A program made the position numbers and the translations under genes. A DNA stretch of 64,000 nt. Source: Eledone cirrhosa. Lineage: Eukaryota. Below, piece after piece: positions 7,177 through 63,840 of the stretch (position 1 is its first letter; each line of letters starts with the position of its first letter). The notes under the pieces are model-generated. The model searched no databases. It had not been told where the DNA came from and saw only the letters and a program-made list of their open reading frames with translations. The stretch is from contig OZ024742.1 of NCBI GenBank assembly GCA_964016885.1, positions 16,306,001-16,370,000 on the forward strand, in the 5' to 3' direction.

Positions 7177-7620
7177 CTATCCGTTAGGGTATAACGTGGG
7201 GCTGTAATACAGGAAAGTTTTGTACAATTTATGTTTACAAGCCGAAATTACCTCAGATTTTTTGTTTAAGATGTGGTCTGTGGCGTAGAGTATTTCCAGG
7301 GCCTCAGCGGCGCAGAGGTCACATGGTCCTTTATTTCCGTTATACGATCTAGCCCTAGCTAGGATCTCCCAGTGTAACTTATATTGGGTGTGGTTGTCTT
7401 TTAGACACCAGATATAAGCTGAAAGTGACGTCATATTCCTTCTTAGAGGGTAACGAAAAGAATGGGTATGCATGTAAAGACGCTGCTTGAATCTATTAGC
7501 GGTTAACCCTATGTAGACCCTACGGGACGTGGGTGTTACAACCTTACATTTGTAGACAATGTTACTAGAGAGGCATTTCCCGGATAGGGGGCAATCAATC
7601 CGATTCCTACAAATACACAT
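7177..7620 (-). pseudogene. GIY-YIG endonuclease domain of a PLE
   Basis: CICRNRIDCPLSGKCL-IVY..VYIG..FKQR..H..SF..CDLC..E..LNKKSE..CKH; the ORF N-terminus is only (TG)n. Confidence 0.85.
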
Positions 7621-7622
7621 AT

Positions 7623-7660
<38 letters not shown>

Positions 7661-8079
7661 ACACACACACACACACATATATATAATAACAAACCAATTG
7701 ATTTGCTAATACATCGAAGCAATCTATATATCTATATATTGGCGAGAAAGACATTTATTTTCCTCTAAGATCCACCTTAATTATAGTTGTATGAAACATA
7801 GGTTTGTTTCCGTATCAGCAATATCTAATATATCGACAGGGTATTATGAACGACACGGTGAAGTATATCAGGATTGTAGCCATTCAGACACTATAATTGT
7901 CAGCGAGGATGTTGCTAGTGAAAATGAGCACATATCGTTTTATTCGGTTTAATATCGGTCTAAGAGTCAACTAGTTTGGAACTGACAGTGCTGTTCTGGT
8001 CCATTATATTGCCAACTGAAATAGAATGACTTACAATAATAACACCAAGTTCAACAAAACTTACAAGAAGAAAATAACA

Positions 8080-10544: not shown

Positions 10545-11405
10545 AGAGGTGTGTCAGAAAAGTTCCAGGACTGATGTCACAAAAGATTTATTTCAAACCC
10601 AAACTTCATACTAAGAGTTTTCTTCTTCAGAGTAATCCCCCTGGAGTCTAATACACTTTTCCATCCTTTTCTTCCACGCTTGCATGCACTCCTAGAAGGA
10701 TTCTTCCGGGATCCTGCGCAGTTCCTTCGTCACGACTCTTTTGATGTCATCTACGTCTTCAAAACGGGTCACATCCGGATCGTACTCGAAGATCCACGAC
10801 TCAGCACTGTCCCTAGCAAGTCTGGTTCGGTTTCAAGACGCTCGAGGATGTCCTGGCACACTTGCATGCGTCGACCATTCTGGTCATCGTTCAGCAGTTT
10901 TGGCACCATCTTCGCGCAGACTTTCCGTATGTCCAAATCTTCAGTGAGAATCTTCCAGACGCTGTCCCGATTCATGCCCAGCTCATTTGCCATCAGTCGA
11001 AGAGTCAGCCGACGATCTCTACGCACCATCTGCCTGATGCCCTCAACGTTGACCTCAGGCCTTCCGCTCCTGGGGTCATCTTGCACCACTCAAAAACATG
11101 TGAGCGTGACATCGTCTCATCTCCATACACTTGCTGCAGCAATCCCAGTGCTTCTGGCGGAGCTTTCCCCAACCGTACCAGAAACTTCAAGTTTGTTCGC
11201 TGGTCTGTGCTCATTGCTTGACGACCTGAAACAGAGGACATGTATATAAAATTATGAAGAAAAAGGTTTGATCGCTGCAGAGAGCTAAGATTACAGTTAC
11301 ATAATCCAAGGGGATTACTTTGAAGGAGAAAACTCTTAGTGTGAAGTTTGGGTTTGAAATAAACACTTTGTGACATCAGTCCTGGAACTTTTCTGGCCCA
11401 CCTCG
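10545..11405 (-). mobile_element. Internally deleted mariner (Tc1/mariner) transposon
   Basis: About 100-bp terminal inverted repeats (TIRs; AGAGGTGTGTCAGAAAAGTTCCAGGACTG), TA flanks, and transposase remnants MSTDQRTNLKFLVRLGK..VYGDETMSR and DDPRSGRP..KVCAKMVPKLL. Confidence 0.92.
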
Positions 11406-11411
11406 TATATA

Positions 11412-11457
<46 letters not shown>

Positions 11458-11459
<2 letters not shown>

Positions 11460-11610
11460 TAATAATAATAAATGTGAAGATTAAAATCCAAAGAGGGCTC
11501 GATAAGGATAAATATATATCAAATATATAAGAACCCTAGAGCAAATATTAAAGTAACAAATTAAAGTTTAAGCAATTCTTTGCTTAAACTTTAATCTGTT
11601 ATTTTAATAT
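11458..11610. mobile_element. Tiny PLE terminus of the 6205 family ending in a fold-back palindrome
   Basis: Matches 9104-9178 plus 9423-9465; palindrome TTAAAGTTTAAGCAA ttct TTGCTTAAACTTTAA. Confidence 0.7.
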
Positions 11611-11617
11611 ATATATA

Positions 11618-11940
11618 AGAGGTGTGTCAGAAAAGTTCCAGGACTGATGTCACAAAAGATTTATTTCAAACCCAAACTTCACACTAAAAGTTTTCTCCTT
11701 CAAAGTAATCCCCCTGGAGTATGTAACTGTAATCTTAGCTCTCTGCAGCGATCAAACCTTTTTCTTCATAATTTTATATACATGTCCTCTGTTTCAGGTC
11801 GTCAAGCAATGAGCACAGAGCAGCGAACAAACTTGAAGTTTCTGGTACGGTTGGGGAAAACTCCGTCAGAAGCACTGGGATTGCTGCGGCAAGTGTATGG
11901 AGATGAGACGATGTCACGCTCACGTGTTTTTGAGTGGTGT
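11618..11940 (+). mobile_element. Truncated mariner 5' end (TIR and transposase N-terminus)
   Basis: Same TIR as 10545; MSTEQRTNLKFLVRLGKTPSEALGLLRQVYGDETMSRSRVFEW. Confidence 0.9.
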
Positions 11941-12002
11941 GTATATATATATATATGGATAAGAAGTTTATGAAACGGAAATGCGGGTATAAAGAATTTA
12001 TT

Positions 12003-16179: not shown

Positions 16180-16532
<353 letters not shown>

Positions 16533-17607: not shown

Positions 17608-18330
17608 GTTGGTAAACGGAATAGAAAATGCTGACAAATTGTTCACAGTTGAAAAATGGTTTAATTAGGAATAAAAAAGTATTAGTGATTGTATGGGTTA
17701 GTATTCAGTTGTGGTTTTAAGTTTTTAAGTTTTTACCGGTTGCGCATTTCTAAATGCTTTTCAAAAATAATTTTGAGATAGAGTGTCCGTGCTGTTTGCT
17801 CTGATCTGATTAGTTTTGGGAATTCTACCTGTTTTTATGTTAAAAAAGTGGCTCCAATTTGCAAAAATTCTTGTGGTCAAAACAATTTTGATTGGTCGGT
17901 AGAGGTCATGTGAATGTAAAAAATTGATCTACCGACCAATCAAAATTGTTTTGACCACAATAATTTTTGCTGGAGCCACTTTTTTAACATAAAAATAGTT
18001 TTGGCGCAAAATCAATTTTTTATATTCACATGACCTCTACCGACCAATCAAAATTGTTTTCACCACAAGAATTTTTGCAAATTGGAGCCACTTTTTTAAC
18101 ATAAAAACAGGTAGAATTCCCAAAACTAATCAGATCAGAGCAAACAGCACGGACACTCTATCTCAAAATTATTTTTGAAAAGCATTTAGAAATGCGCAAC
18201 CGGTAAAAACGTAAAAACTTAAAACCACAACTGAATACTAACCCATACAATCACTAATACTCTTTTATTCCTAATTAAACCATTTTTCAACTGTGAACAA
18301 TTTGTCAGCATTTTCTATTCCGTTTACCAA
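17608..18330. repeat. About 310-bp-arm inverted repeat with a partial third copy in the spacer
   Basis: 17608-17920 is the reverse complement of about 18015-18330; each arm carries a degenerate HHR (18172-18209: TTT TTGAAAA GCATTT ag AAATGC GCAAC CG GTA AAA). Confidence 0.85.
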
Positions 18331-18802: not shown

Positions 18803-18895
18803 ACACAGTTACGACTGTTTCACAGATGGGTGGCTCAGGATCTATATAAACACTATAGACCCGACTCCAGCCCCGGATCTGCTCATCAGACTTGT
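18803..18895 (-). ncRNA. Type I hammerhead ribozyme motif with long stem II
   Basis: Minus strand: ACAAGT CTGATGA GCAGAT...ATCTGT GAAAC AGTC GTA ACTgTGT. Confidence 0.68.
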
Positions 18896-19046: not shown

Positions 19047-19282
19047 TAGGAAAAGAGTTAGGATCCCGACGGCTGAGCTCCGGCCGTTTAGACAGCTAGA
19101 TCCGAACTAACGCAGCAGTAATGTGTCTCTAACCAATGCTGCTGGGTTGGTTCGGATCTAGCTGTCGAAACGGCCGGAGCTCAGCCGTCCGACCTTAACT
19201 CTTTTCCTATTCCCCGCTCTACTATCCATAGTATCGAGTACTCTGGTGCGTTATGGTCCACCTGGTTTCTTACCACACTTTA
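19047..19282. mobile_element. Fold-back PLE terminus related to family C (imperfect palindrome 19047-19210 plus tail)
   Basis: Contains GAAACGGCCGGAGCTCAGCCGTC; tail similar to 16328-16395; fragment also at 36555-36601. Confidence 0.75.
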
Positions 19283-19655: not shown

Positions 19656-19740
19656 GGTGACGCGCGTTTCGCCACTGATCAGCTCAAGGTTCGATCTGTA
19701 TTGATCTATCCCGACTCTGTAATCCGCGGCTCGTCAGACC
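19656..19740 (-). ncRNA. Type I hammerhead ribozyme motif, family D
   Basis: Minus strand: GGT CTGACGA GCCG...TGGC GAAAC GCGC GTC ACC, then AATAAA; palindromic mini stem III typical of PLE hammerheads. Confidence 0.8.
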
Positions 19741-26009: not shown

Positions 26010-26410
26010 GTAAAATAAAAAAGGACGAGTGGTTACTCCTTCATTACGTTTATTGGTTGGTGACGCGCGTTTCGCCACTGATCAGCTCAAGGTTCGATCT
26101 GTATCGATCTAGCCCGATTCTGTAATTCACGGCTCGTCAGACCCCTTATAATGGTAATGAAAAAATGATTATACATGGCGTATGAGATTACAGAGTCGGG
26201 CTAGATCGATACAGATCGAACCTTGAGCTGATCAGTGGCGAAATGCGCGTCACCAACCAATAAACGTAATGAAGGAGTAACCACTCGTCCTTGTTATCTT
26301 ATTTCACTATAATACACTGTCTAGCTCTACACCTCGACACTGAAGTGAACCTAAACATCGAGTGCTCACCTCGGTCAACCTACAGTAACTCCAAGTTACA
26401 CTCCCTGGAT
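26010..26410. mobile_element. Family D PLE terminus with inversion; full hammerhead at 26059-26143 on the minus strand
   Basis: Arms about 26010-26127 and 26186-26305 are inverted, plus a 100-bp tail. Confidence 0.8.
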
Positions 26411-26423
26411 ATATATATATATA

Positions 26424-27510
26424 CAGAGAACCTATTTTACCACCTATTAGAGAACCTATTTTACCTCCTATTAGAGAACCTATTTTAGCTCCTATTAAAG
26501 TACCAATTTTACCACCTATTAGAGAACCTATTTTACCTCCTATTAAAGAACCTATTTTACCTCCTATTAGAGAACCTATCTTACCACGTATTAGAGAACC
26601 TATTTTACCACCTATTAAAGAACCTATTTTACCTCCTATTAGAGAACCTATTTTACCTCCTATTAGAGAGCCTATTTTACCTCCTATTAGAGAACCTATT
26701 TTACCTCCTATTAGAGAACCTATTTTACCACCTATTAGAGAACCTATTTTACCACCTATTAGAGAACCTATTTTACCTCCTATTAGAGAACCTATTTTAC
26801 CTCCTATTAAAGAACCTATTTTACCTCCTATTAAAGAACCTATTTTACCTCCTATTAGAGAACCTATCTTACCACCTATTAGAGAACCTATTTTACCTCC
26901 TATTAGAGAACCTATTTTACCACCTATTAGAGAAACTATTTTACCACCTATTAGAGAACCTATTTTACCACCTATTAGAGAACCTATTTTACCACCTATT
27001 AAAGAACCTATTTTACCTCCTATTTGAGAGCCTATCTTACCACCTATTAGAGAACCTATTTTACCACCTATTAGAGAACCTATTTTACCACCTATTAGAG
27101 AACCTATTTTACCTCCTATTAAAGAACCTATTTTACCTCCTATTTGAGAGCCTATCTTACCACCTATTAGAGAACCTATTTTACCTCCTATTAGAGAACC
27201 TATCTTACCACCTATTAGAGAACCTATTTTACCTCCTATTAGAGAACCTATTTTAGCACCTATTAGAGAACCTATTTTAGCACCTATTAGAAAACCTATT
27301 TTACCTCCTATTAGAGAACCTATTTTAGCACCTATTAGAGAACCTATTTTACCTCCTATTAGAGAACCTATTTTACCTCCTATTAGAGAACCAATTTTAC
27401 CACCTATTAGAGAACTTATTTTACCGCCTGTTAGAGAACCTATTTTACCACCTATTAGATAACTTATTTTACCTCCTATTAGAGAACCAATGTTACCACC
27501 TATTAGAGAA
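26424..27510. repeat. 24-bp minisatellite (AGAGAACCTATTTTACCWCCTATT)n, about 45 copies
   Basis: Head-to-tail units with no spacers. Confidence 0.95.
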
Positions 27511-27753
27511 CGGTCGATACTTTATTATTTGTTCAATGGCTCTCGCTATTTCTTCAAAATATATTCCATATATACTCACTACCAGTTACAGTCATTGAAT
27601 CAATGCATTAATGGTACTACTTGTTACTGTCATATTGAATGAATAGAAGTAAACATACACACACACGTGCACCAGGTCCAAATACAGTGGAGCTGAACTG
27701 TCATCGCCTCCATTTCTCTCGCTCTCCTCATCTCTGACCATTATTAGCAAATT

Positions 27754-29612: not shown

Positions 29613-32600
29613 TTACAGATATATACTCAGAGTCGGCCCATTCACTCGGGCCATTCTTGCTTCTCTCACCCATCTTTCAACAAAATGCTGGGAAGAGAGC
29701 ACTTCCTTCTCTACTCTGATTTTCCTTTTCAAATGAAATTTGAAAAAGTCAATCAGAGCATCACCGAAGAGGTAAGTGCTCGTCTTCAGCCCTTTCAAAC
29801 GTGTCCACCATACTATCTCTTTCGCCATGGCCACCAGACAGATAAAAACTGCCTGCCCTTCCCGGCTAAAGGAGGAGGGCGGGGCAATCCTCACGATAGA
29901 CTCAGATGATAGCTGGATCCGTCCTAAACGCGACAGCAGGTGTTCGACATAAACCCACAAGTCAGCAATTTTCGGACACTGGACGAGTGCGTGCAGGACG
30001 GTTTCGTCGCCCTGCGCGCATCTCGGACATTCCCGGCTGACGGCACCTCCATGCCTGTAGAGTTTATCCCGAACTGGCAAGGCTCCTCGGTAGCACTGCC
30101 AGGCCAGAGATTTCTGGAAGTTGTCCATAGGCCCTGGCCCGAAAGTTCTTCCGAAGAGATTGGCTAGTTGATTTTCGTCGACGCCTAGAGTTTCCCCAAG
30201 TACGTCGTCGCTCTTCCCCTCCACTAATCCTCTATAGAACGCCGAGGTGGAGTTTCCACCGATCACATTGCCCGATTGGTCGAGGGCTGTGAGCGCCTGA
30301 AGACATTCCAGTCTCCAGGCGCTCCCTCTCGGTCTTCGCTTGACCCAGGACTGCAGCTCCGTCAAGGAAACGAGCTGGGGAAATACGTGTCTAGCAAACG
30401 GCGACCACACCTGATCACCGTCGAGGAAGAGGTGGAGATGTCGTAGCCTGAGTGCGTGTCTGCGCATCATCAGCCACGGCATGCCCAGCCCTCCACGTAG
30501 CGAGTGTTGACAGCAGAAAGCGAAAGAACAAACGCTCCAGCGCAGTCAGGCGGGGCTTAGGACAAGGTACGGCGGTCAGGCGGTAGCAGATGACAGACGC
30601 GATGTACGCGTTAGCCACCTCCGCTCGACCTTTCAGGGATAGCTTCCTCTCCGCCCATTTCTGGGTGACAGAAGCCACCCTGCTCGTCACCTCATCCCAA
30701 TTTTTGTCCGTCTGGAGGTCCGGACCGAACCAGACCCCTAGCAATTTAACCGGACCGTCCGTCCAGCGTCCGACGACGATGTTGGACGGCATGGACCTGC
30801 CTCTCCATGTGCCGAGCTGCAGGCCCACTGACTTTTCCTGGTTGATCATTGCTCCTGTCACCGCTTCGTATTCTCTTAGTGTAGTGCCGATCGCCTCGAT
30901 GTGTTTGGCGTTCGACACAACTACTGTGACATCGTCCGTATATGCTGGCACGGACTTCCGCATCCTAGTTCGCGCGGGACGCCCCTCAACGTCTCCAGTT
31001 TGTGCAGTAATGGCTCGAGACTCAATACGTACAAGAGGGACGAGAGGGGACATCCTTGGCGGACCGAGCGCATGATATTGAACGGTTCCGAAAGGTGACC
31101 ATTCACTATTACCACAGAGCAGATGTCGCTGTGCATGGCAGCGATCCAGCCTCTGAAGACGGGCCCAAAGCCAGCCGACCTCAGGACTGCCGCTAGGTAA
31201 CGATGGTCGACCCTATCGAAAGCTTTCGACTGATCTAAATTGATCAAGGACGCACCCGTGCCAGGTTCCCTAGCTACCCTCTCTACGATGTATCGCATGA
31301 GGTGGAGGTTGTCGTGGATGGATCTGTCGAGAATAACGCATGTCTGCGCCTCTTTCACCAGTCCACCAACGACAAGCGCCAACCTCTTTGCTAGCACCTT
31401 GGCCAAAATCTTGAACTCTGTGTTTAGCAGAGTTATGGGCCTGAAATTATCTATGTTATTGCCCCTTGTTCGAATCCTTTCTCAGCAGTGCCACCGCTCC
31501 TCGGCTCACATAGCTGGGAATTCTCCCGTTCTGTTGCCAATTGCAGTAGACGTCCGCCAAGAGGCCTCCGAACAAGTCTGGCATCTGTACGTAAAGTTCA
31601 TAGGGCAGACCATCCAAACCAGGCGATTTACCCCTTGTGCAGCCAGTCATTGCCTCCCGTACTTCAGAGGCTGTTATCGGCTTTACGCAACACTCCGCCT
31701 CAGTGGCCGAGAGCCGCGGCAGTCCGTGGAGGTAGACACTAAAGTCCATCCCTCGACCCGGCCCACCGCTGCCCCCGAACAGCTGAGTGAAGTGTCGCTG
31801 AAAAGCTTCACACATTTGCCCGGGATCAAGTAGCATGTGCCCGTCGTGGTCCACCAAAGACCGGATCGTAGCTTTGTTGCCACGACGCGCCTCCGCCACT
31901 CGGGCCCATTGAACGGCTTTCGTCCCCTCGTGTCTGAGAGCACGCACCCTAGCTCTGACAACGCAGCCTTCGTGCTTTGCATTGAAGAATTGGTCAAATG
32001 CCAATTTCGCCGCAAGCACGTCGGTCGCGATGCCTTTGCTAAGCGCCTTATCTAATTTTCTATCTAGTTCTCCCTCTGCTCTATTTTTCTCTATTGTTAA
32101 ATCCTTACTAAATCTAATGGATTCTATTCTAATCGCTCTTTTCAGAGCAAACCACCACTTGCTGTTGACGATGGCTCCCGTCAACGCCCGCTTAACTAGT
32201 TCGCTAATCCGGTCTCTGTAGGCCTTGCGCGCTGGTAAGGACGCGTTTAGCTTCCTGTAGCCGGGTCCTCGTCTATGAAGCCTATCTAAATCAAGCACAC
32301 AGATCACGAATTTTTAGTCCGTGTAGCTGACTATCTTGAATTGTGGACAGCCTATGCTAGACCTATCTATTTCCCTACAAAATACTCTATCTAGATATGA
32401 TCTGGATGACCCTATGCGATTTGTCCAAGTCCACATTGGCACATTCGGGAAATCGAATCGGTACCTGTCAGACAGTTCAAAACGCCTGAGCAGGTTGGTG
32501 AGGCTCTTGTACCCTCCACCCCTATCCGCTAATCCCACACCTCGATCCAGTCGCCCACTAACATTAAAGAGCGGGACGTTCCAAGAAAGGTCTCCAGACG

Positions 32601-32971
32601 CCGGAAGAAATCAGGCCGCCCTGCTCCTGTCGGGGCATAGACGGCCACTAGCGTGAAAGCTTGCCCGTCTCCGCTGGTCACGTCCAGCACCACTAACTTA
32701 CCCTCTGGGTCCAGGAAGATGGCCCGTATGGCGAGATCCAAACTTCTCCGAAAAAGCACAACAACTCCTCCCCCCGATCCAGGACGGCTGGGAGATGCGT
32801 GCACATCGTAGCCGCCGAAGATCGGTGCGAAGGCCCGTGCTTCGGAAATCTGGTCTCGCTGATGGCCACTACATCTATGTTTAGTGACCTGAGGTCGTTG
32901 AGCAGGTGACTCTGCTTCCATGACGACCCCAAGCTACGCGCATTTATGCTGCCTAGTCTGAGTGATGTCAT
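29613..32971 (-). pseudogene. ORF2 (APE endonuclease, reverse transcriptase, C-terminal Cys/His region), frameshifted
   Basis: LGSINARSL, VAVYAP, VGDW, SYLDR, NLDQSKAFDRVDH, SVRQGCPLS, AYTDD, CPRC..ETVLHALVQC. Confidence 0.92.
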
Positions 32972-33006
32972 GTTTAAAATAGAGTGGAAAAGATGGGAAA
33001 GACCAC

Positions 33007-35133
33007 TTACCGTACTTTTCGTAGAGGAAGGATGGTTTCTCCATCCCTTTTCACTTGATCGTCTGGTGAAGGGACTGTTGAATCGTCCCTTCGGCTGGTC
33101 GTCGGCTCTTCTATGAGTATGTCCGAATATACTCTCCAATTGAGAGTCCCTACTAGCTCTCTGAAATCACCAACTCCGTTGGGGAATTTCGTTTTAATGT
33201 TTGTGTATTGTTTCTGTGCTATTTTTAGCAGTCTTATGTTCGTTGGCGTTTTGATAGGTGCTGGTATTCTGTAGTCGTGCTGTGAAATGTCTGTGTGTTC
33301 AATTATGTAAGTCATTAGTTTCTTGTTGTGTGTATTTATTGCCGTGCATTTGTTTATCTGGGGTGGGGTGTGGTTCTGCTATTTTCTTGTCGTTGTTGCT
33401 GGGTGTGTGTGTTTTGTTGTTGTGTTTGCGATGTTGGTGCTTGTGGTGGTGTTGTTGAAGGCGTTGTTGTTGTTGGCGGTAGGGTTGTCGCCGGTGGTGA
33501 TGGTGGTACTAGTGTGGGTGGTGATGGCGTTGGTGGTGTTGCTGCTGTGAGTCTCTTTGCAGTAGCCTTTACCCTTTTTTCATTTCTTTCCTCCCTTTTC
33601 GAAGGCGATGATGCGCTGCTTCTGCGTTTGTGCCTTCTTACGACCTTTTGCCATCCCTCTCCCACCTCACACTCCATGTCTGATTCTGTGAGGTCGGGGA
33701 GGGGTACCAGCTCCACTCTCTCACTTGTTGTTGTTGGTGATGTTTGCAGTGGAGTCTTTGTTGCAGCTGCATTTGGTATTGCTGTTGTAGTTGTTAATAC
33801 TTCCACTCCTGCTGCTGTTCTTGATTTCCGTGGCGTGGGTATGGGTGCCACGGACCTATCGTTCCTGGTTGCCGCTTGTCCTGTTGCTGGTAGCCGTGGA
33901 GCCGGTTTCGGAAGGAGGGGGGTTTTCTCCTTTCTCAGGGTCTTCTTTTTGCAGAAGGCCCTGAGGTGAGTCTTCGATCCACAGCGAAAGCATTTCGGGC
34001 GTTTGCCCTCAACACTTATGGGCAGTTGAGTGCCGTTATCGAAGTCTCTCACATCCGGGGTAGCTTCGATGCACTCCTGGTTGGTTTGGATTAACATCTC
34101 AATGGAGGTGCAGACCCAATTTTCTCTTACTTTTTTGTGTACTTGCAGTACAGTTGTTTTGTCCTCAATTCCGACGAGGACAGACGCGGCCAACCAAGAA
34201 GGTGCGATCCCGGGGGGGGGGGTCAGTTTGATCCTCACAATTTTTTGCCCGCAGTAGGAGGGCACCAATACCATTTCCTCGCTCCTTAGGGTCACTAAGG
34301 ATTGAGCCTTTGCCTCCTGGGTGTGGCAAAAAGCACGTCTACGGTGGAATATTTCTTGCCTCAGGTGATGTGCGTTTCCGCTGCCACACAGACCCTAAGG
34401 CTTTTTGTATTTGTGGCTCTTTCAACCCTACGGCCGTACAGTGCTGTTGGGTTTCGAAAAATTGTTCGGCTGCCTTGCAGATTGCTCGGTGTCCGGTTTT
34501 CGTCACCATCTTCTTCGATTCCTCTAATTCCTCATTTGTTATGAGGATGGTTTCCAGGTTCTTTGTGATACCTGCAAACGAGATTGGTTTTTCTTTGCTG
34601 CTGTTGTTGTTGTTGTTGTTGTCGTCAGAGCTGCTGTTACTTTTGTTGTTGCTGCAGGTACTACAACTACTGCCGCCGCCGCCGCTGCTGTGGTTGTTGT
34701 TGCTGCTGCTGCTGTTGTTGCTGTTGCTGCTAATGCTGTTGTTGTTTATGCTGCTGCTGATGCTGTTGCGGCTGCTATTGTTGTTTTCCTTGTCACTGTT
34801 GCTGCTGATGCTGTTATTACGGCTGCTACTGCTATTATTCCTGACGTCAGACGAATGAAATGGGTTTTCGTATTTCCCGCACACCTTTTTCGTCGTTGTC
34901 GTCGTCGTCGTGGAGAAATCTTGCACGCTTTGCACGTGATTTTTCTTTTCTGGCGTCGCTTGCGAAAGAGAAGGGAGGGAAAGAGATACATTTAGAGAAG
35001 GGAGGGAGAGAGACAATCTTCTCTCTGCTGTAGTGACGATTGAGGAAGAAGAAGACGGAATGAGTGGGAGTGACCTATGAACATTTTTTTCGTAGCCATG
35101 ATTTTTTTTTTGTTTAAAATAAATATTGGGCAC
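33007..35133 (-). pseudogene. ORF1 (gag-like CCHC knuckle, Ser/Asn and Pro/Thr low-complexity tracts), frameshifted
   Basis: VEGKRPKCFRCGSKTHLRAFC. Confidence 0.8.
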
Positions 35134-36551: not shown

Positions 36552-36599
36552 GTGTAGGAAAAGAGTCCGGACCCCGACGGCTGAGCTACGGCCGTTTCG

Positions 36600-36664
<65 letters not shown>

Positions 36665-36713: not shown

Positions 36714-36749
36714 CTTTTGAAAAGCACAAGAACTGCGAAACCGGTAAAG
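36714..36749 (+). ncRNA. Minimal type I hammerhead with U3:A8 core, family E
   Basis: CTT TTGAAAA GCA caagaac TGC GAAAC CG GTA AAG. Confidence 0.68.
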
Positions 36750-38401: not shown

Positions 38402-38520
38402 TATTAGGATTGGTGCTCTGAAATAGCGATGTATACATGAATGTATGTATAGTATATTTGCCAAATATACTATACATACATTCATGTATACATCGCTATT
38501 TCAGAGCACCAATCCTAATA
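38402..38520. repeat. Perfect ~59-bp-arm palindrome
   Basis: TATTAGGATTGGTGCTCTGAAATAGCG... is mirrored around 38461. Confidence 0.9.
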
Positions 38521-39686: not shown

Positions 39687-39842
39687 ATATATATATATAT
39701 ATATTATAAATATATATATATATATTATAAATATATATATTATAAATATATATATATATATATATATATAAAGAAAAAGGGATGAAATCGAAAATGCAAC
39801 TGAAGTCTTATTTTTTTTTTAAATATATATATTTATTTGGTT

Positions 39843-39880
39843 CCTTTACCGGTTTCGCAGTTCTTCTGCTTTTCAAAAGG
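39843..39880 (-). ncRNA. Minimal type I hammerhead with U3:A8 core, family E
   Basis: Minus strand: CCTT TTGAAAA GCAG aagaa CTGC GAAAC CG GTA AAGG, then AATAAA; lies at the end of a ~1.1-kb insert (39771-40900). Confidence 0.78.
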
Positions 39881-40396
39881 TGAGTTGAGATGGAGGGTCT
39901 GTGGTTTTTCTCACATCTGGTTGGTCTCTAAATGTTACTTGTTTTATATGGAAAAAGTGGCTCGAAAACCAGGTTTTTCGAGAAGTAATTTGATTGGTTT
40001 GTCAATAATTATAATAAATTTCGCGCCAGTTCGCGTTACAATAGTTCTTCAAATAAGAGAGGGGGGGGGGGGTTGTCACAGGTTGTTTTTTCATATATGA
40101 GTGTTTGAATTTCTTTTTACTTGAAAAAATGAGGCTCACGAAGGCTTTTTTTTTGGTTGGTTATAAATGAAATTTGGCTGTCACGTGAACAAGTTTTCAT
40201 TACATTTTTGCGCCCTTATTTGGAAAACTATTCTGTAGTCTTTATAGTGAATGTTATGACAATGGAGAGATAGTGGTCAAGGGAAAAGGGATTGGGAGAA
40301 ATGTTCTGGTTCAGTGAATATGGCCAGCTGTCAGAGTTCAGGTGTCAGAGTTCAGATTTTCTATTGAGACTGAAGATATGTGTTTATTTGTGTGCT

Positions 40397-44878: not shown

Positions 44879-44933
44879 ACTGCTATATATATTTCAGTGA
44901 CAGCCATCTTTGGCTGTGACCTCTTCAGGCAGT
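44879..44933 (-). ncRNA. pLTR type I hammerhead ribozyme, copy 1
   Basis: Reverse complement of 52464-52518. Confidence 0.85.
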
Positions 44934-46139: not shown

Positions 46140-48810
46140 CTACTGTCCATATATCTTGAGAAAGGTCCCGGCTCTAAGGTGTCTGCATGTCCCGAAGAAG
46201 TCGGTTCTGAGGTTTATCAGGCCGCTTCCACCTCTTAGTATCTCGAGGGTCTCGTTCAGGCATAGTTTGCATATGCAAGATCCCCCTTTATCGGGTGGTG
46301 CTTTCCTGATTATGTACCAGGCCAGAGAGTATGGGGTTCTGTCCAGCTTAAGCTTCCAGATCAGGTCGGAGAGAGCTGTGCTTTTCCTTTTGGCCTCCTT
46401 CTTGAATGAATTGCGATGGTTGTACCAGCGGTCCTTAAAGCTCGTTGATGTGGCTCCTATGTAGAGGTGTTCGGAGTTGGGGGTTTTAACCCTACAACCG
46501 TACACTAGGTTCTTCTTGAGACATTCATTACCAAGGGGGCATGATTCGGGGTTTCTGCAGTTGCAGAGGGTGGTCGGCCTCTGCGTGCCTATATTAGGGT
46601 TCTCATTATGTGTTACATGTTGGTCTTCCCCCATGCTCGGTGGGGGGTCCTTGGTTCTGTTTGTGTTTCTTGGGTGGGCTCTGAGTCCCCCCTTCCCTCC
46701 TTTCACATGGTTCTGCTGAGTGTTTGTATTGCCATCTTCTGGTTGTGTGTGGTTTTTAAGCCTACTTTTGTTGATGCTAGCTATGTGTTGGGCCAAATTT
46801 CTCGTGGTGGAATACGAAAGCTTCACTGTGTGTCTGTTGAAGATCCTGTGGTATCTGTGGTCCCTCGGGAAGCATTTGTCAAGTGCTCCAAAGAATAATC
46901 GGGCCAAGCTTTTCTTTAGGGCCGCTGAGTAGGGTGGGTTGTACCACGTGATTTGTCGGTGTTTTCTCCTATATGTGTGGGTTGGGGGCTTCGTGATTTG
47001 TTGGAGATTTGTTGGGTTGCTGGTGGTTTCCGCGCTGTTGCTTCCCTTTGGGCTCTATACTTTTTGTTATCTTCGCGGCCCGGATTTGTGGGGTGGTTGT
47101 TGTCCGCCTCGGGAGATCCATCGTGGGGTGGTCGCCCCCCCCACGTGTCCTGCGGTTGGGGTTGTCCGTCCTGGGGTAGTTAGCGTCACGCCTGAGACTG
47201 CTACTCATATTGTGCTCCATCTCGTGGTCAAGCGCACTAGTCCCCACCGCCCGTGTGGTGGTGTCTGGTACATGGTGCCTATTTGATTCTGCTCTGCCTG
47301 TATTGTTAGGGTTCGCCCTCCCCCCTCTGGCAACACGGTTGTGGGTGTCTGTTAGGCTATCCACCTCCCGGCTTTTCGGACTATATGTTATATTTTGTCC
47401 ATGTGCCGCCTTCTTTAGAGCTGCGTTGTAATATTCCGCGTGGTTGTTGAATATTTCCTTACTTGCGGACAGGCTGGAGATCCCGTCCGAGACACTCTTC
47501 ACCACTGCCTTGGTTATGGATCTAGGGTGGTTTGATTTGGCGTTAACATATACGAGTTTCTCGTTGGGCTTGTTGTAGGGGTAGTATTGCTCGGTGTTCA
47601 GGTTTAGGGTGGTGTCTAGGAAGTTAACTACCTTCCTATTTGGGTCTATTTCTATGCTGAGCCCCTGGTTCTTAAAGAAATGGCGAATACGCCTCCTCAT
47701 ACCCTCCAACATATTGGTGCTGTGGTCATGTACTGTGAATAGAGCATCGTCACGATATAATCCGCCGCCCAGGCAGGGGATTTCATCTTTTATCTGCTTC
47801 AGCAGGTAGAGCCCAACCAGGTCCGTTACCTGCGCTGAGTCGCTGGAGCCCATCGTGATGTCAAAGTTATTTGGCCAATCACTCCTGGTCCAAAGGTCTC
47901 CATCGAAGCGGATTAAGGTCTTTCTTGCGGCGTGGATGATGCTCACCTCCTCTCGGGTTAGGTCCGTATTGGACATCGGTAAAAATAGGGCCTTATTAAG
48001 TACTATGGGTGAGATTGAGGAGTAGTAGCTTGCGATGTCCAGTTGTATAAAGCTGGTCCTACTTTTCTCATGCAGTATTTTGAACCATTCTATTACTTAT
48101 CTCGTGCATGACCATTGCTGTAATTTGGTTTTCTTCCGAAGCTTGGGCAAAATCCTATCCAGTATTCTTTTACTGCGATCCCTAGGTCAGATCTGGAGGG
48201 GGCTATTAGTCTGACAGGGAGGTCGGACTCAAAGTTTGACTTGTGGTTTTTAAGGGTAATCCGCGGCTCCCTTGGTTGGTATGGGGCCGTCCTGTCCTCT
48301 ATGCCGATTCTGGATATAATCCTGTAAGCTGTGGCATTGATCTCATCCAGGGTAAATCCAGGTGTTTTTTTGTACCACTTCCTCGGTTCCCTGAGGATTA
48401 GCTTATTGTACAGTTCAGTGTTCATGTTGTAGAGGTTATTTGTTTTGTCAGCATGGACAAGTATTCCAGTTGTCCCTTTAAGTACTGTAATCCGATTACT
48501 CAGGTGTCTGAGGTACTCCTGACTTCTGGTTGGGTTTCCGGAGAATTTGAGGTTGGATATGATGTTAATCATCTCGTTTTCAAACTTCTCCATTAGTCTG
48601 TTGGGGGGGGGGGGGATTCCTCCTTGATCGAAAAAGGTACTCCATGTTTTCTGTGTTGGTCATTTTCTGCGTTCCTCTTTCGAAGTGGAACGCCTTCCAT
48701 CTCATCCTACGGATGAGGGAGTCCGTACTCTTGATGAGATCACTGGTGTATTCTCGTTTATCAGGTAGGGGGATGTCCTTCAGTGACGCTAAGGTTGCCA
48801 GTTTATCCAT
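46140..48810 (-). pseudogene. PLE polyprotein (RT plus C-terminal GIY-YIG), with frameshifts and a stop
   Basis: SLKDIP..RRMRWKA, ADKT, PVRLI, FIQLDIASYY, MGS, LYRDD, FLD, CNCRNPESCPL, LVY..LYIG, CKLCLNE, CRH. Confidence 0.92.
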
Positions 48811-49012: not shown

Positions 49013-49067
49013 ACTGCTATATATATTTCAGTGACAGCCATCTTTGGCTGTGACCTCTTCAGGCAGT
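49013..49067 (-). ncRNA. pLTR type I hammerhead ribozyme, copy 2
   Basis: Reverse complement of 52464-52518; about 200 nt upstream of the ORF ATG. Confidence 0.85.
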
Positions 49068-49804
49068 TTGAATTAGTATGGTATAGACAAGTACATGTGT
49101 TGTTTAGGTGTATGATATTGTCAATACTCTGATATGCCCAGTTCCTTGTTGGGTTGTTAATTCACTGGGGAACTGGAGTCATATGAATTCAAACAAACGA
49201 ATTTCAGTGTCACCGGTCCCCTTCTCCTCTCATTGGTCAGTTATTAGAACATTCCTCATTCTAAGTGTTGTTATTGTTGGAGTTAGCTTAAAAATTGATA
49301 AAATGGTAGAAGGGACAAGGTGTTAAAGGAACAAAATAACAAAATAACAAAAAAAGTGTCAAACTTCCCATTGTTCAGTTCTAAGAGCATTCCTCAGTCA
49401 GAAGTCTATAGAATTCTTTCTGGGGTGAGGCTCCCTGTGTTGTTTTTGCCTGCTATTGTTCAGTACATTTGACCTCCACCATTATTTTGGTACTGTTGTT
49501 GTTGTAGTGGTCAGCTTATATCTTGCTGCTGCTAACAATTTAGAAGTATCCAGTTTGTGTTTTTTCTTCATCTCTCCCGCCACCATCGTAGTGGTGGTGG
49601 TGGTGGTGGGGGTTATTTCATGTATATGAAGAAATATATGGCAATAAATGAAGAAAACAGAAAATAAATAAATAATATAATAAAGTAATTAATATAATTT
49701 GTGTAATTTGAAAATAAATAAATAAATAGAGAATAAAGAATAAAGAGTAAATGAGAGATTGGTGAAAAAGTAATGATAATGTATATGGAGAGCACAGCAC
49801 CAAT

Positions 49805-51256
49805 ATGTTGGAGGGTATGAGGTGGCGTATTCGCCATTTCTTTAAGAACCAGGGGCTCAGCATAGAAATAGACCCAAATAGGAAGGTAGTTAACTTCTTA
49901 GACACCACCCTAAACCTGAACACCGAGCAATACTACCCCTACCACAAGCCCAACGAGAAACTCGTATATGTTAACGCCAAATCAAACCACCCTAGATCCA
50001 TAACCAAGGCAGTGGTGAAGAGTGTCTCGGACAGGATCTCCAGCCTGTCCGCAAGTAAGGAAATATTCAACAACCACGCAGAATATTACAACGCAGCTCT
50101 AAAGAAGGCGGCACATGGAAAAAATATAACATATAGTCCGAAAAGCCGGGAGGTGGATAGCCCAACAGACACCCACAACCGCGTTGCCAGAGGGGGGAGG
50201 GCGAACCCTAACAATACAGGCAGAGCAGAATCAAATAGGCACCATGTACCAGACACCACCACACGGGCGGTGGGGACTAGTGCGCTTGACCACGAGATGG
50301 AGCACAATATGAGTAGCAGTCTCAGGCGTGACGCTAACTACCCCAGGACGGACAACCCCAACCGCAGGACACGTGGGGGGGGGGAACAGGCGACCACCCC
50401 ACGATGGATCTCCCGGGGCGGACAACAACCACCCCACAAATCCGGGCCGCGAAGATAACAAAAAGTATAGAGCCCAAAAGGGAAGCAACAGTGCGGAAAC
50501 CACCAGCAACCCAACAAATCTCCAACAAATCACGAAGCCCCCAACCCACACATATAGGAGAAAACACCGACAAAGCTTTCGTATTCCACCACGAGAAATT
50601 TGGCCCAACACATAGCTAGCATCAACAGAAGTAGGCTTAAAAACCACACACAACCAGAAGATGGCAATACAAACACTCAGCAGAACCATGTGAAAGGAGG
50701 AAAGGGGGAACCCAGAGCCCACCCAAGAAACACAAACAGACCCAAGGACCCCCCACCGAGCATGGGGGAAGACCAACATGTAACACATAATGAGAACCCT
50801 AATATAGGCACGCAGAGGCCGACCACCCTCTGCAACTGCAGAAACCCCGAATCATGCCCCCTTGGTAATGAATGTCTCAAGAAGAACCTAGTGTACGGTT
50901 GTAGGGTTAAAACCCCCAACTCCGAACACCTCTACATAGGAGCCACATCAACGAGCTTTAAGGACCGCTGGTACAACCATCGCAATTCATTCAAGAAGGA
51001 GGCCAAAAGGAAAAGCACAGCTCTCTCCGACCTGATCTGGAAGCTTAAGCTGGACAGGACCCCATACTCTCTGGCCTGGTACATAATCAGGAAAGCACCA
51101 CCCGATAAAGGGGGATCTTGCATATGCAAACTATGCCTGAACGAGACCCTCGAGATACTAAGAGGTGGAAGCGGCCTGATAAACCTCAGAACCGACTTCT
51201 TCGGGACATGCAGACACCTTAGAGCCGGGACCTTTCTCAAGATATATGGACAGTAG
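49805..51256 (+). pseudogene. Inverted duplicate of the RT thumb and GIY-YIG, with a ~130-bp deletion at about 50572
   Basis: ORFs 49805-50458 and 50600-51256 are nearly identical to the minus-strand copy. Confidence 0.9.
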
Positions 51257-52463: not shown

Positions 52464-52518
52464 ACTGCCTGAAGAGGTCACAGCCAAAGATGGCTGTCAC
52501 TGAAATATATATAGCAGT
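52464..52518 (+). ncRNA. pLTR type I hammerhead ribozyme, copy 3
   Basis: ACTGC CTGAAGA GGTcACAGCCA aaga TGGCTGTcACT GAAA TATATA TA GCAGT, then AATAAA. Confidence 0.85.
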
Positions 52519-55914: not shown

Positions 55915-55924
55915 ATATATATAT

Positions 55925-57487
55925 AGGAACCAGTAAGACCCCGACAGCTGAGCTCAAGCCGTTTCGACGGCTAATTTCTGGACTAAATGAAATTTATCCT
56001 GGTATTTAAATAGCCGATCTTCTCAAGGGGTAATTCCATATATGGTCAAAGTGATTGTCAAAAATCAGGTAGTAATTCTGTGGTTGCAAATTAGTAGGGG
56101 AGATGGTGGCTAAACTGCCAGTAGGAGAAAGAGGGGAGGGGGTGGAGTAGACCCAATCAAGCGTTGGTAGTGCCAGCTACAGCTGGCATGAGGTCAAAGA
56201 AGATACAGGGGAGGGGGAGGGGGAGGGGGAGGAAGTCGGAACGGTAGGTAGAACAATGGGGGGTAGAAATAGGAAAGAAAAAATACTGAGAGTGAAGAAA
56301 AGCAAATAAGTGTAAAGGAAAAAGGTAAAGTAAATTAAATTCTACGACCTAGGTGTCAGGCTATTGTTAGGCGAGAATAAATAAAGAAAGAAAGAAAGAA
56401 GTAAATAAATAAATAAATAAATAAGGAAATAAGTAAGAGAACTAGGTGGGACGGATAAGGCAAGGACCCTTTTAAGAGGTATAAGTACGTAAATGATACG
56501 GTGACGGGTCAACAAAAGGGGCCAAAATACTAAAGAGACTACCACGAAATAAACAATAAGGTTTCCATCCCGGGCCAGCAACGACCCAGTGCAGCAAAGT
56601 GAACTTGTACGAGATAATAATTCTGAGTCCCGAGAAAAATATATACTAATGCTAACTCTAAAAGATCTAAAACAAGCTACATGAAAGTTCGTACGAAATA
56701 AAGGTAGAATACGGAGAAATAAATTCAGAATCCACCCCGCCCAGAAGAAAAGCGAAGCAAGAAATACTGAAACGAAAAATAAGGCATGTGCCACTAAGAA
56801 ATATAGAGGGCACAGAGATAGTGGGAGCGGTCGGAAAAAAGGGGGAAAGTATCCGGGATCTAAGCCAACTGCTATAAAGGGCGGAGTCCGCAAATCTATC
56901 AAAGACTAGGGGGGGGGGGGTACTAAGGCTACATGGGGGCCAAAGGGCAGCCTCGGGTGGGCGAGAAAAGACGCCGACAAAGGAGAAGAGCTGGGGTAGA
57001 AGGACAAAGGAGAGAGGGGGGAAGGAAATAAAGGAAGCGATAAAAGAATACAAAGAAGATCTTACGTCTTCCTTGGCAAGCAGGGTTACCCATTGCAAAA
57101 TCGGGCAACTGGGGTGTTATAGCCCTAGTCTACCCCCCCGGGTCATTATGGGGTTTGAGGGCGAGGTAAGTCCTACGCAATCTATGTTTACATGCGGTAA
57201 CCAGTTCATCTTCTTGTTTAGGAGTTGGTCCGTCGAAAACAGCATTTGTAAAGTTTCCTCCGAGCATAAATTGCACGGACGGCGTCTCCCGTGTAAGAAT
57301 TGGCTCTGGACAGTAATCTCCAAGTGAGATCATAGGTGATGTTGTTGTCCTTGAGGTCCCATATGTGGCCCGAAAGTGTAGTGGCGTGACGCCGGGCCGG
57401 GTTTCGGAAGGTATGTCTATGTTGGTATAGCCGGGTCTTGAAGTCACATGCGGTAAGTCCTATATAGGCTTTGTTGGAGGTATCCGT
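55925..57487 (-). mobile_element. PLE 3' portion: GIY-YIG end (57130-57487), ~1.1-kb 3' UTR and terminal hammerhead; runs into an assembly gap
   Basis: AYIGLTACDFKTRLYQH..LSGHIWDLKD..CNLCSEE..ACKH. Confidence 0.85.
55938..56031 (-). ncRNA. Type I hammerhead with U3:A8 core, family C
   Basis: Minus strand: ACCCC TTGAGAA GAtCGGCTA...TAGCCGTC GAAAC GGCtTGAGCTCAGCT GTC GGGGT. Confidence 0.8.
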
Positions 57488-60824: not shown

Positions 60825-62030
60825 TTGAGAGTTGGCTGTTTGAACGCGCGTGGCCTGGGCTCAGCTTGGAAGCAAGCAAAGCTACTAAGTGACCTCAGGT
60901 CACGAAGTATAGATGTGATGGTTGTTTGCGAGAGTCGGATCAGCAGCGTGCGACAGCTGGCTCCCGCCTTCGATGACTTTGAGATGCACGCATCTCTCTG
61001 TCAACCCGGAGGCGGGGGGGGGGGGGGGGGTTGCCGTACTGCTGGATAAACGTCTGGCTCTCGACGTACAGATTGTTCACTCGGACCCGGGGGGGTCGAT
61101 TACTGGTGCTGGACGTCGGAGGCGGTGAAGGCGGGGCTTTCAGACTGGTCGGTCTTTATGCCCCCTTCGGGGCTGAAAGAGCCGACATCTTCCAGCGACT
61201 GGAGACTTTTCTAGGAACGTCGCGTTCCCTGCTTTTAGTGGGAGACTGGAATGGAATCCTAGATGCGCGTTGGAACTATGCAGGGGCATGTCCCGATAGA
61301 GAGGGGTGTAGCAGCCTTAAGGGGTTACTCGATCGATTCGACCTGGTCGATAGATTTCGACTAGATTGTCCAACTGCGCCAACCTGGACCTGGGCAAACC
61401 GCAGTGGACAATCTAGATCGTACCTAGATAGGTTTTTGCTTAGGAGTAAGGATAGGGACGTATTTAGTTGTCCAGAATTGATCATGGTTGGCTATACAGA
61501 TCAAAAATTAGTGACCTGCGTGGTCAACCTTGATAGAAGGCATAGACAGGGTCCCGGTTACTGGAAGATGAACTTGTCCTTGCCGGCAAAGAAAGATTAC
61601 AGGAACCGGATTAGTAGCTTAGTTAAGATGCGGTTGACGGGAGCGATCGTCAACAGTAGGTGGTGGGTATCTCTAAAGAGAGAGATTAGAGTAAGTTCGA
61701 TAGGTTACAGTAAGGAACTAGCGGCGAATAAAAATAGAAGGGAAAGGGAGTTGACAGATAAACTAGAAGAGGCGATTAGGAGCGGAGACGTAGCCAGAGT
61801 GTTAGCGGCGAGAACGGCGTTGAGCCAGTTCTTTGACGCGAAGCACGAAGGCTGCGTTGTCCGAAGTAAAATACGTGCTTTAGGAAACGAGAGGACCAAA
61901 GCTGTTAGCTGGGCCCGCGTGACAGAAGCCAAGAGTGGGATTAAATCCACCATTCGGTCTTTGCGAGACCAGGTTGGACGGGTGATCCTTGAACCTGAGC
62001 GGATGTGCGAGGCCTTTCAAAACTTTCAAA
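60825..62030 (+). pseudogene. LINE ORF2 APE endonuclease and linker, with frameshifts near a poly-G run
   Basis: APE endonuclease motifs. Confidence 0.88.
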
Positions 62031-62227
62031 ACTTTCAAAACTTTTTTGTTGTTACCCTGGCGTCCCCTTTGTTTACGTGTCCCAACGACTTTTTTTAGCC
62101 GTTGTTCGCACCAACCTGAGGCATATGGCCCTTAAAGCGATGAAATGCCCAGGACGGTTGGAGGGTCACTGATGAAGGACTCACTTTTTCATATGTATCC
62201 CATTTGCAACGCCGCAGCTCCATTATT

Positions 62228-62619: not shown

Positions 62620-63750
62620 CATATATATATAGTTTACATAATTTACATAAATCTTTCGTTGGACATCTGCAACATCGTCAGTGGTGTTATATTCATTGTT
62701 CCTCCTGTTGTGTTGTATGTCTACGCCATTTTTTTTTGTTCAGTCTGTCTATATATTTATTTATTTATTTGCTTGTTTGTTTATCTTATTTTATTTTGTC
62801 TTCTTTGCGCATGCGTTTGCGTGTGTGTATAGTGTTATGTGTGATGTGTGACTAGTGTGTATAGTGTTGTGTCTGCTGGGTGACTAGTGTGTGTTTATGT
62901 GCTTGTGTATGTATTTATTTATCTTATTTTATTTTATTTAATTTACTTATTTATTTATACTTCTCTTAGGTCAGTGTTGTTTGTTTGGGTGTTGTTGTTG
63001 TTCCACTCATTCTTTCTGTTTAGCTTTGGTCTTCTAATTTCTATGTCACTGGCCTCTCTGATTTGCCTATCTGCTGGGTCATTCCTATGTTTAGATATTA
63101 TTCTAATTTCTATGTTGTCTATGTTACCGTCATGTTGTTGTCTAGCATGTTCGTATAGTACTGACCCGTTTTTTCGTCCTTTTAGTTCCCCCCAGTGTTG
63201 GTCTATCCTTTCACCTATGCTACGAGCTGTCTCACCTATGTATGTTGTTGTCGTGTTTCTGCAAGTACCCTCTGTACATCTTATACTATAGACTACGTTT
63301 CTAGTTTTACAGTTTATCCGGGGGTTCACCTTACATATGATACATTTCCTATTGGTACAGTGGGTTTTCTTAAAAGGGTAGGTTTTGCTGATCAGGGATT
63401 TTATGGTGGTTCCTGGCTTTTCTACCACCTTTATTTTTAAGTGGGTCTTTCTCAGGGCCTTTCTACACTGGTTAGCTAATTTCCCTCCAGGGGTGGCGTC
63501 CACAAACATGACACTCTGATATCTCTGGTTGTCGTACCATGATGTGGCCTTCCCTATCTTATGTCTAGCCCTATCTAAGCTATTCCATGATTTGCTCCTG
63601 TATAGTGGGCAAATTCCTTTCATGTCCAGTTCTATGAGGGTCTTATACTTTTCCATGGCTCCTTCGTATACTCTGACTCTGTCTCTTTGGTTGTAGCCAG
63701 AGAACTGCATGCGGTTGATGAAGTGTTGGATGTGTCCTTCCATTTCTGTT
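62620..63750 (-). mobile_element. 5'-truncated PLE of a different clade (CxxC-type linker) with a hammerhead-like motif at 62645-62684
   Basis: ORF 62955-63743: SGY..CTNRKCIIC..NVVYSIRC..C..YIGETARSIGERIDQH..H..REA..LNRKNEW; minus strand CA CTGACGA tGTTGcA gatg TcCAAC GAAA GATT TA TG. Confidence 0.85.
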
Positions 63751-63840
63751 AATATCGTATATATCGTTTCATTTAATATCGTATATATATATATATATAC
63801 GATATTAAATAAATGGAAACTATATTTATAAAACCATATT

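Follow-up and report, generated by a model that had tools for sequence, protein, structure and literature searches.

Four motifs in a 64,000-nt stretch of the Eledone cirrhosa genome (contig OZ024742.1, positions 16,306,001 to 16,370,000; hereafter the window) resemble hammerhead ribozymes whose catalytic core carries U3 and A8 in place of C3 and G8. This raises the question of whether such a paired change reflects repeated selection for catalysis or is inherited with the sequence that surrounds it. An initial annotation had favoured the former, reading the motifs as three unrelated families in which the swap arose independently under selection for catalysis, to give an under-counted class of ribozymes.

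Hammerhead folds in the window

The window was scanned on both strands with a descriptor that left positions 3, 7, 8 and 13 free. This recovered all four motifs, in a type I hammerhead layout, together with a fifth U3:A8 hammerhead (17734-17764, minus strand) and six C3:G8 hammerheads that had been missed. The 3:8 pair is a Watson-Crick U:A in 5/5 window copies of the U3:A8 type, which are assigned to families A, B and C (Table 1).

Table 1. Family A, B and C features of the window (positions counted from the first nucleotide of the window)
Feature	Position	Strand	Basis or content
3′ part of family A Penelope-like element	55923..57487	-	GIY-YIG end, long 3′ region, pLTR
C-terminal GIY-YIG endonuclease piece of family A ORF	57218..57487	-	Translation matches end of L093 ORF
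Family A type I hammerhead motif	55938..56031	-	Descriptor, fold, dimer prediction; 3,999 genome copies of 5′ half
Family B minimal hammerhead, U3:A8, palindromic stem III, GUA site	39843..39880	-	Descriptor; 13,618 genome copies
Second family B copy, short 5′-truncated insertion	36714..36749	+	Descriptor, comparison with other copies
Family C motif, U3:A8 plus A13C	18172..18209	+	Descriptor, genome copies, sister to family B
Inverted partner of family C motif (motif 17734-17764)	17730..17767	-	Descriptor, comparison with other copies

The family A motif has the core UUGAGAA (U3 at 56026, A8 at 56021 and A9 at 56020), a GUC site, a 5-bp stem I, a long loop II and a palindromic loop III. Its predicted centroid fold is the three-helix hammerhead, and from the sequence cleavage is predicted between 55943 and 55942. 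Both family B copies have the core UUGAAAA and a GUA site, and a palindromic ACCGGU replaces stem III; stems I and II are present, while stem III arises in the predicted dimer. The family C motif at 18172-18209 shares the UUGAAAA core, with GCAA where GAAA is expected, and its stem I consists of three A-U pairs that do not form in the prediction. The invariant G12-A13-A14, A15.1-U16.1 and H17 are present in families A and B. Family C lacks the invariant A13 and, judged by its sequence, is hammerhead-derived and is not classed as a consensus hammerhead. Changes at A13 are harmful in classical hammerhead mutagenesis, which fits the consensus.

The folding energies of all four motifs are ordinary in relation to shuffled sequences (z-scores -0.94 to +0.73). 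Two focused Rfam scans, of 55925-56100 and 39790-39930, found no hammerhead family at E values up to 10, the best 150 of 449 Rfam matches over the full window contained microsatellite-driven noise, and a repeat search of the window was dominated by TA runs.

Several other elements were noted in the window. C3:G8 hammerheads of family F5 lie at 44884-44928 (-), 49018-49062 (-) and 52469-52513 (+), and three further C3:G8 type I motifs, with a long loop II, at 26062-26140 (-), 19659-19737 (-) and 18810-18889 (-). A near-perfect 113-nt hairpin (38405-38517), which scores below the Rfam threshold of a microRNA family, is probably a small inverted-repeat element, and a minisatellite with a 24-bp period occupies 26307-27521.

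Association with Penelope-like elements

The 55923-57487 element is bounded by an N gap, its other end lies at a TA run, and it is 76-97% shared with other copies. In the 3.0-Gb genome that was searched, whole family A ORFs of 689-786 codons with reverse transcriptase (RT) and GIY-YIG motifs were found at three loci (L087, L089 and L093), where they sit between or ahead of family A hammerheads. The L093 copy is arranged as a tandem unit of 3,118 nt, flanked on both sides by hammerheads, and its cleavage site (3389) is followed ~190 nt downstream by the first Met (3580). Family A thus displays, in this tandem unit, the repeats flanking an RT and GIY-YIG ORF that define a pLTR hammerhead. The motifs read in the single L093 ORF, RT followed by a C-terminal GIY-YIG, are those of an EN+ Penelope-like element (PLE), and the other hallmarks of such elements are seen as well: copies truncated at the 5′ end, partial copies in inverted orientation, insertion at TA and an optional tail. 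The PLE architecture described in PMC8557442 agrees with that seen here. Pfam failed to detect the RT, matched GIY-YIG weakly and for a single relative, and returned no match at E 0.01 for the 57218-57487 translation, and the 767 homologues include none that is informatively named.

A shared 3′ region extends ~1 kb beyond the 39843-39880 motif, to about 40905. Families B and C are preceded, at a distance of ~1 kb, by a GIY-YIG domain distinct from that of family A (L031, L327, L344 and L347), which serves to place them in pLTRs; at the loci examined, no whole ORF was found for either family and no RT was recovered. Taken with the predicted folds, the coding associations identify the motifs as real hammerhead folds situated in pLTRs, the 3′ repeats of Penelope-like retroelements. 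Non-LTR retrozymes were considered and rejected as the identity of families A, B and C, which are dispersed and tied to coding sequence and are not short non-coding tandem repeats.

The 3′ half of the family A hammerhead has 51,079 matches in the genome, many of them short inverted pairs within TA runs, and most seem to be truncated 3′ halves like those in the window. There, 3′ halves of family A-like hammerheads form an inverted pair at about 16225-16320, with diverged relatives at 36569-36600 (-) and near 19167 (+), all truncated within or before loop II.

The window also holds PLE RT and GIY-YIG pieces of family F5 in an inverted arrangement (46140-48659, minus strand; 49766-51256, plus strand), and GIY-YIG-type PLE 3′ coding pieces at 7177-7731 (-) and 62955-63839 (-), for neither of which the descriptor found a hammerhead. 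Judged by eye from their translations, two LINE-like fragments, 29613-33166 (-) and 60983-62098 (+), both contain endonuclease-like pieces, the former also RT-like pieces, and inverted fragments at 10575-11973 resemble the N-terminus of a mariner-type transposase.

Two lineages of U3:A8 elements

Families B and C share 74-80% DNA identity over 50-127 nt and their endonucleases are 50-52% identical, while families A and B share only 27% identity over 55 residues. On this sequence comparison, families B (39843, 36714) and C (18172, 17764) are sisters. The window therefore holds two lineages, not the three unrelated families initially proposed. In a protein tree of the families (9 sequences, 478 columns), which is too weak for counting U3:A8 origins, the C3:G8 families F3-F5 fall on the A side with supports of 40-58, so even the two lineages cannot be proven independent. 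Independent U3:A8 origins for these two are plausible from the sequences, whereas the claim of three is abandoned. Outside the window, single U3:A8 hammerheads from other families were seen in L226 (+) and L264 (-), the former preceding, by ~250 nt, a PLE ORF with 42% identity to family A.

U3:A8 as an inherited consensus

Exact-pattern searches of the genome gave 3,999 matches for family A, 13,618 for family B and 7,567 for family C, with 0 in reversed controls. The proposal that U3:A8 is a family consensus was borne out in family B, where about 13,429 of the 13,618 copies carry this pair and none carries C3:G8. A8 is kept in all 100 listed among the 124 copies that lack U3, and the 65 copies with a pyrimidine at position 3 but without A8 all have U3; by this distribution, family B inherits U3:A8 as its consensus, and the copies that depart from it do so by single changes.

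Among 100 listed of the 7,567 family C matches, C13 (GCAA) is present in 97, U3 in 100 and A8 in 99, which places the total of A13C copies at about 7,300. The 18172 motif had been described as more degenerate, but its GCAA is the family C consensus. Contigs of a second organism (run X5) span the family C site with no change listed, and carry GCAA too.

Covariation between families was measured in a 1-Mb sample of 100 evenly spaced 10-kb stretches, with a descriptor that demands GAAA and hence misses family C. The 52 matches comprised 32 C:G, 10 U:A, 0 C:A, 0 U:G and 10 others, while shuffled controls gave 8 and 12 matches per Mb with 0 and 2 paired cores. As no C:A or U:G appeared in a random 1 Mb, mismatched cores are exceptional. 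Matches from the same family are not independent and the family count is therefore the fair measure; the 12 multi-locus families in all DNA examined divide into 9 C:G and 3 U:A. With U:A in 10 of the 42 paired-core matches, about a quarter of the hammerheads here would escape a search restricted to CUGANGA. To this extent the class is indeed under-counted, although it was already in print (2011, 2014).

An amplified C3·A8 phase in family A

The covariation that holds across families does not hold inside family A, where 1,206 of the 3,999 copies lack U3. C3·A8 is found in 98 of 100 listed among these, contrary to the prediction that few C-A combinations would exist. A looser pattern gave 83 family A copies without A8, comprising 9 C:G, 42 U:G, 1 A:G and 31 with C or U at position 8. 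By comparison, 1,381 copies lack G7, and A, U and C have all been amplified there. That position 7 is free and position 8 fixed confirms the register of the core and shows constraint on the source elements, but position 3 switched back and forth. C3 is accompanied by a base other than G7 in 45 copies, versus 1,206 with G7. In run X1, which may be the sample behind the assembly, U3C has a depth of 52,602/197,530 and position 8 has no listed variant; U3C was not seen in run X5.

Two trees were constructed, one from pLTRs with position 3 masked (117/129 copies, the 12 truncated copies being left out) and one from coding DNA alone (35 copies). In both, the C3·A8 copies form a grade across two subfamilies, between older and youngest U3:A8 copies, and the 55938 copy of the window falls in the youngest U3:A8 subfamily. 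In the coding tree, where supports around the grade are 44-87 and the root depends on a distant outgroup, U3:A8 sister branches adjoin the grade. Like the U3 group, the C3 group retains A8, all three stems, GUC and, in 41/43 copies, GAAA, and this equal conservation suggests that the fold still mattered. Among the C3·A8 copies, a first set of five that have long coding pieces and a further set of three show ORFs that are broken or partial, fitting their age. A search within family A revealed no C3:G8 ancestor; the 9 of 83 non-A8 copies that carry C3:G8 fit single mutations, and C3·A8 is therefore not established as an intermediate from C3:G8.

At the level of its genomic copies, family A is shown to have gone through an amplified C3·A8 phase, and for some period its trunk looks to have been C3·A8. 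Two subfamilies multiplied to thousands of copies with cores that are predicted to cut poorly. The fixed position 8 beside a free position 7 upholds selection of some kind, but the ~1,200 C3·A8 and ~7,300 A13C copies contradict strict selection for catalysis. Covariation judged from few genomic copies can exaggerate selection.

Dimers, insertions and the role of cleavage

Palindromes in loop III or stem III would permit dimers, both from the sequences and from structure prediction. Homodimers predicted for the family A and 39843 copies take a double-hammerhead form through these palindromes (-61.3 versus 2 x -22.9 kcal/mol for the family A monomers, and -20.3 versus 2 x -6.4 kcal/mol for 39843), and exchange stems I and III between the molecules.

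The insertions themselves carry a record of the cleavage site. Using a family B pattern that ended at the site, 75/76 copies were found to extend past it. In family A, 184/226 copies match the sequence downstream of the site and the 12 listed of the other 42 continue in diverged form, in a set partly biased by the search patterns. A clean start at the cleavage site was found in 0/87 copies. The insertions therefore span the site, and their RNA template was either uncut at this point or re-ligated, in line with the in vitro insertion reported for cleavage-dead PLE mutants (PMC11167929).

We consider it probable that the known U3:A8 core is inherited with each copy and likely cuts weakly, in dimers or with the help of protein, at a step that is not strictly needed. 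Two lineages of Penelope-like elements carry hammerhead folds, each copy receiving the U3:A8 core of its source element. Since the L093 site lies ~190 nt before the first Met, a tandem transcript would be cut at that distance ahead of the first AUG and trimmed to unit length, freeing a 3.1-kb unit. The palindromic loops III may allow two copies to form an active dimer, and cutting would be weak, in such dimers or aided by the element's protein, with copying not strictly dependent on it. Pairing of positions 3 and 8 would be favoured in the long term, while lineages with a broken pair or an altered A13 could still succeed. Efficient self-cutting is then likely not needed for the spread of these elements. 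Against this reading, the C3 group keeps its fold, mismatched cores are exceptional in the 1-Mb sample, and cleavage followed by circularisation would likewise give read-through.

A stronger proposal, which we regard as possible but clearly the less probable, is that lineages kept spreading after their core broke, as a C3·A8 trunk (~1,200 copies, then back to U3:A8) and an A13C family (~7,300 copies), with the hammerhead dispensable, or cut in trans by competent relatives, or active outside the accepted consensus. If true, this would supply a ready series of natural alleles with which to ask what PLE hammerheads are for.

Two of these mechanisms can be weighed on their own. As the core of each RNA in a double hammerhead acts on its partner's site, C3·A8 RNAs might be cut in trans by U3:A8 relatives, so that keeping the stems would suffice. 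The exchange of stems I and III in the predicted dimer would allow this, 43 C3 and 76 U3 copies have the same stem I, stem III and palindromic loop, and U3:A8 sister branches stand beside the C3·A8 grade. However, the C3 group retains the enzyme half (stem II, and GAAA in 41/43), which would be superfluous in a pure substrate, C3·A8 looks like the family trunk for a time, and family C would form just two stem I pairs with family B. On balance we find cutting in trans unlikely as the explanation. The odd cores might instead be active by other means, such as a protonated C·A pair, a slipped C3-G7 register or rescue by protein, with A13C tolerated beside A8. The near-constant company of C3 and G7, the conservation of the remainder of the fold, the recurrence of GCAA in the run X5 contigs and the protein assistance reported for one PLE hammerhead (PMC11167929) all point this way, but a single ancestral C3 lineage explains the C3-G7 linkage equally well and position 7 is free in the U3 subfamilies; activity of this kind seems to us no likelier than cutting in trans.

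Still harder to sustain is the original view of three independent compensatory swaps under strict selection for efficient catalysis, in a class that had been overlooked. It draws on the covariation between families, on the fixed A8 beside the free N7 of family A, on the citation of U3:A8 as active in vitro (PMC3088659) and on the failure of Rfam to detect the motifs at the two sites scanned. Against it, B and C are sisters, C3·A8 and A13C were amplified, the variant had already been published, and U3:A8 was not a rescuing swap in a scan of one type III hammerhead (PMC9901934). Random decay of CUGANGA, or chance matches in AT-rich DNA, might be argued from folding energies within those of shuffles and from the descriptor matches in shuffled DNA, but is refuted by the absence of C3:G8 among the family B copies, the empty reversed controls and the linkage of the motifs to PLE coding sequence. 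The reading that we prefer thus remains an inherited U3:A8 core of probably weak activity.

Comparison with known systems

Natural U3-A8 covariation was described by Perreault et al. 2011 (PMC3088659) in several rare examples, cited as active in vitro. The swap is the same here, but occurs in thousands of copies per family and alongside an unpaired state. Cervera and De la Pena 2014 (PMC4209133) reported U3-A8 minimal hammerheads in the pLTRs of Cercyon elements of Schistosoma mansoni, about 1,300 motifs, and found that PLE minimal hammerheads cut weakly even when dimeric. In their Fig. S3, a U3/A8 motif of S. mansoni is shown next to a similar one from S. japonicum with C3/G8, and one example has U3/G8. 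The swap itself is therefore already published and adds little; the remaining interest lies in two natural core mutants, C3·A8 and A13C, that still retrotransposed, for which copy number serves as an in vivo record of cores that still did so. Amplification of a natural PLE core with C3·A8 or A13C was not reported in the literature listings searched, although Przybilski and Hammann 2007, Nelson and Uhlenbeck 2008, Martick and Scott 2006 and, above all, Lunse et al. 2016 may contain such data. When all double mutants of a type III hammerhead were scanned, G3:C8 was the only active swap at this pair (PMC9901934), which predicts that C3·A8 is weak and that the activity of U3:A8 may depend on context.

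Animal non-LTR retrozymes have type I hammerheads related to those of PLE pLTRs (PMC7229834; bioRxiv 10.64898/2026.07.22.740005), but are short non-coding tandem repeats, whereas families A, B and C are the dispersed ends of protein-coding elements. A further U3:A8 family outside the window, F7 (L043:599-1190, L186, L246 and L261; 6,015 matches), fits the retrozyme pattern better: many of its matches are arrayed head to tail at about 591 bp, the unit contains no long ORF, and 99/100 listed matches are U3:A8. F7 resembles a non-LTR retrozyme, with a unit longer than the cited 150-450 bp and a merely possible tie to a coding region.

The likeness to Cercyon is close, comprising type I motifs in pLTRs, a U3-A8 core, a palindromic or short stem III, thousands of copies per genome, and copies that are mostly 5′-truncated and inverted. 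The Cercyon motifs carry an extra base between A9 and stem II that is absent from families A, B and C, and family A differs further in its 5-bp stem III and its loop II of about 40 nt. The representative motifs examined from PMC4209133 include neither a C3·A8 nor an A13C core, positions that the descriptors used there fix. The PAc (Poseidon) PLE of Anolis also has a hammerhead close to its ORF start, insertions that continue beyond the cleavage site, whether tailed or not, and AT-rich targets (PMC11167929), but is C3:G8 with an ORF that begins within the ribozyme, whereas the first Met of family A is ~190 nt past the site. Mutants of a PLE hammerhead lose cleavage, which requires protein, and insert normally in vitro (PMC11167929), and the function of PLE hammerheads is described as unclear, possibly parasitic on the element (PMC8557442). 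Next to these mutants, the C3·A8 phase and the fixed A13C family offer natural alleles in otherwise near-identical backgrounds that bear on the role of PLE hammerheads.
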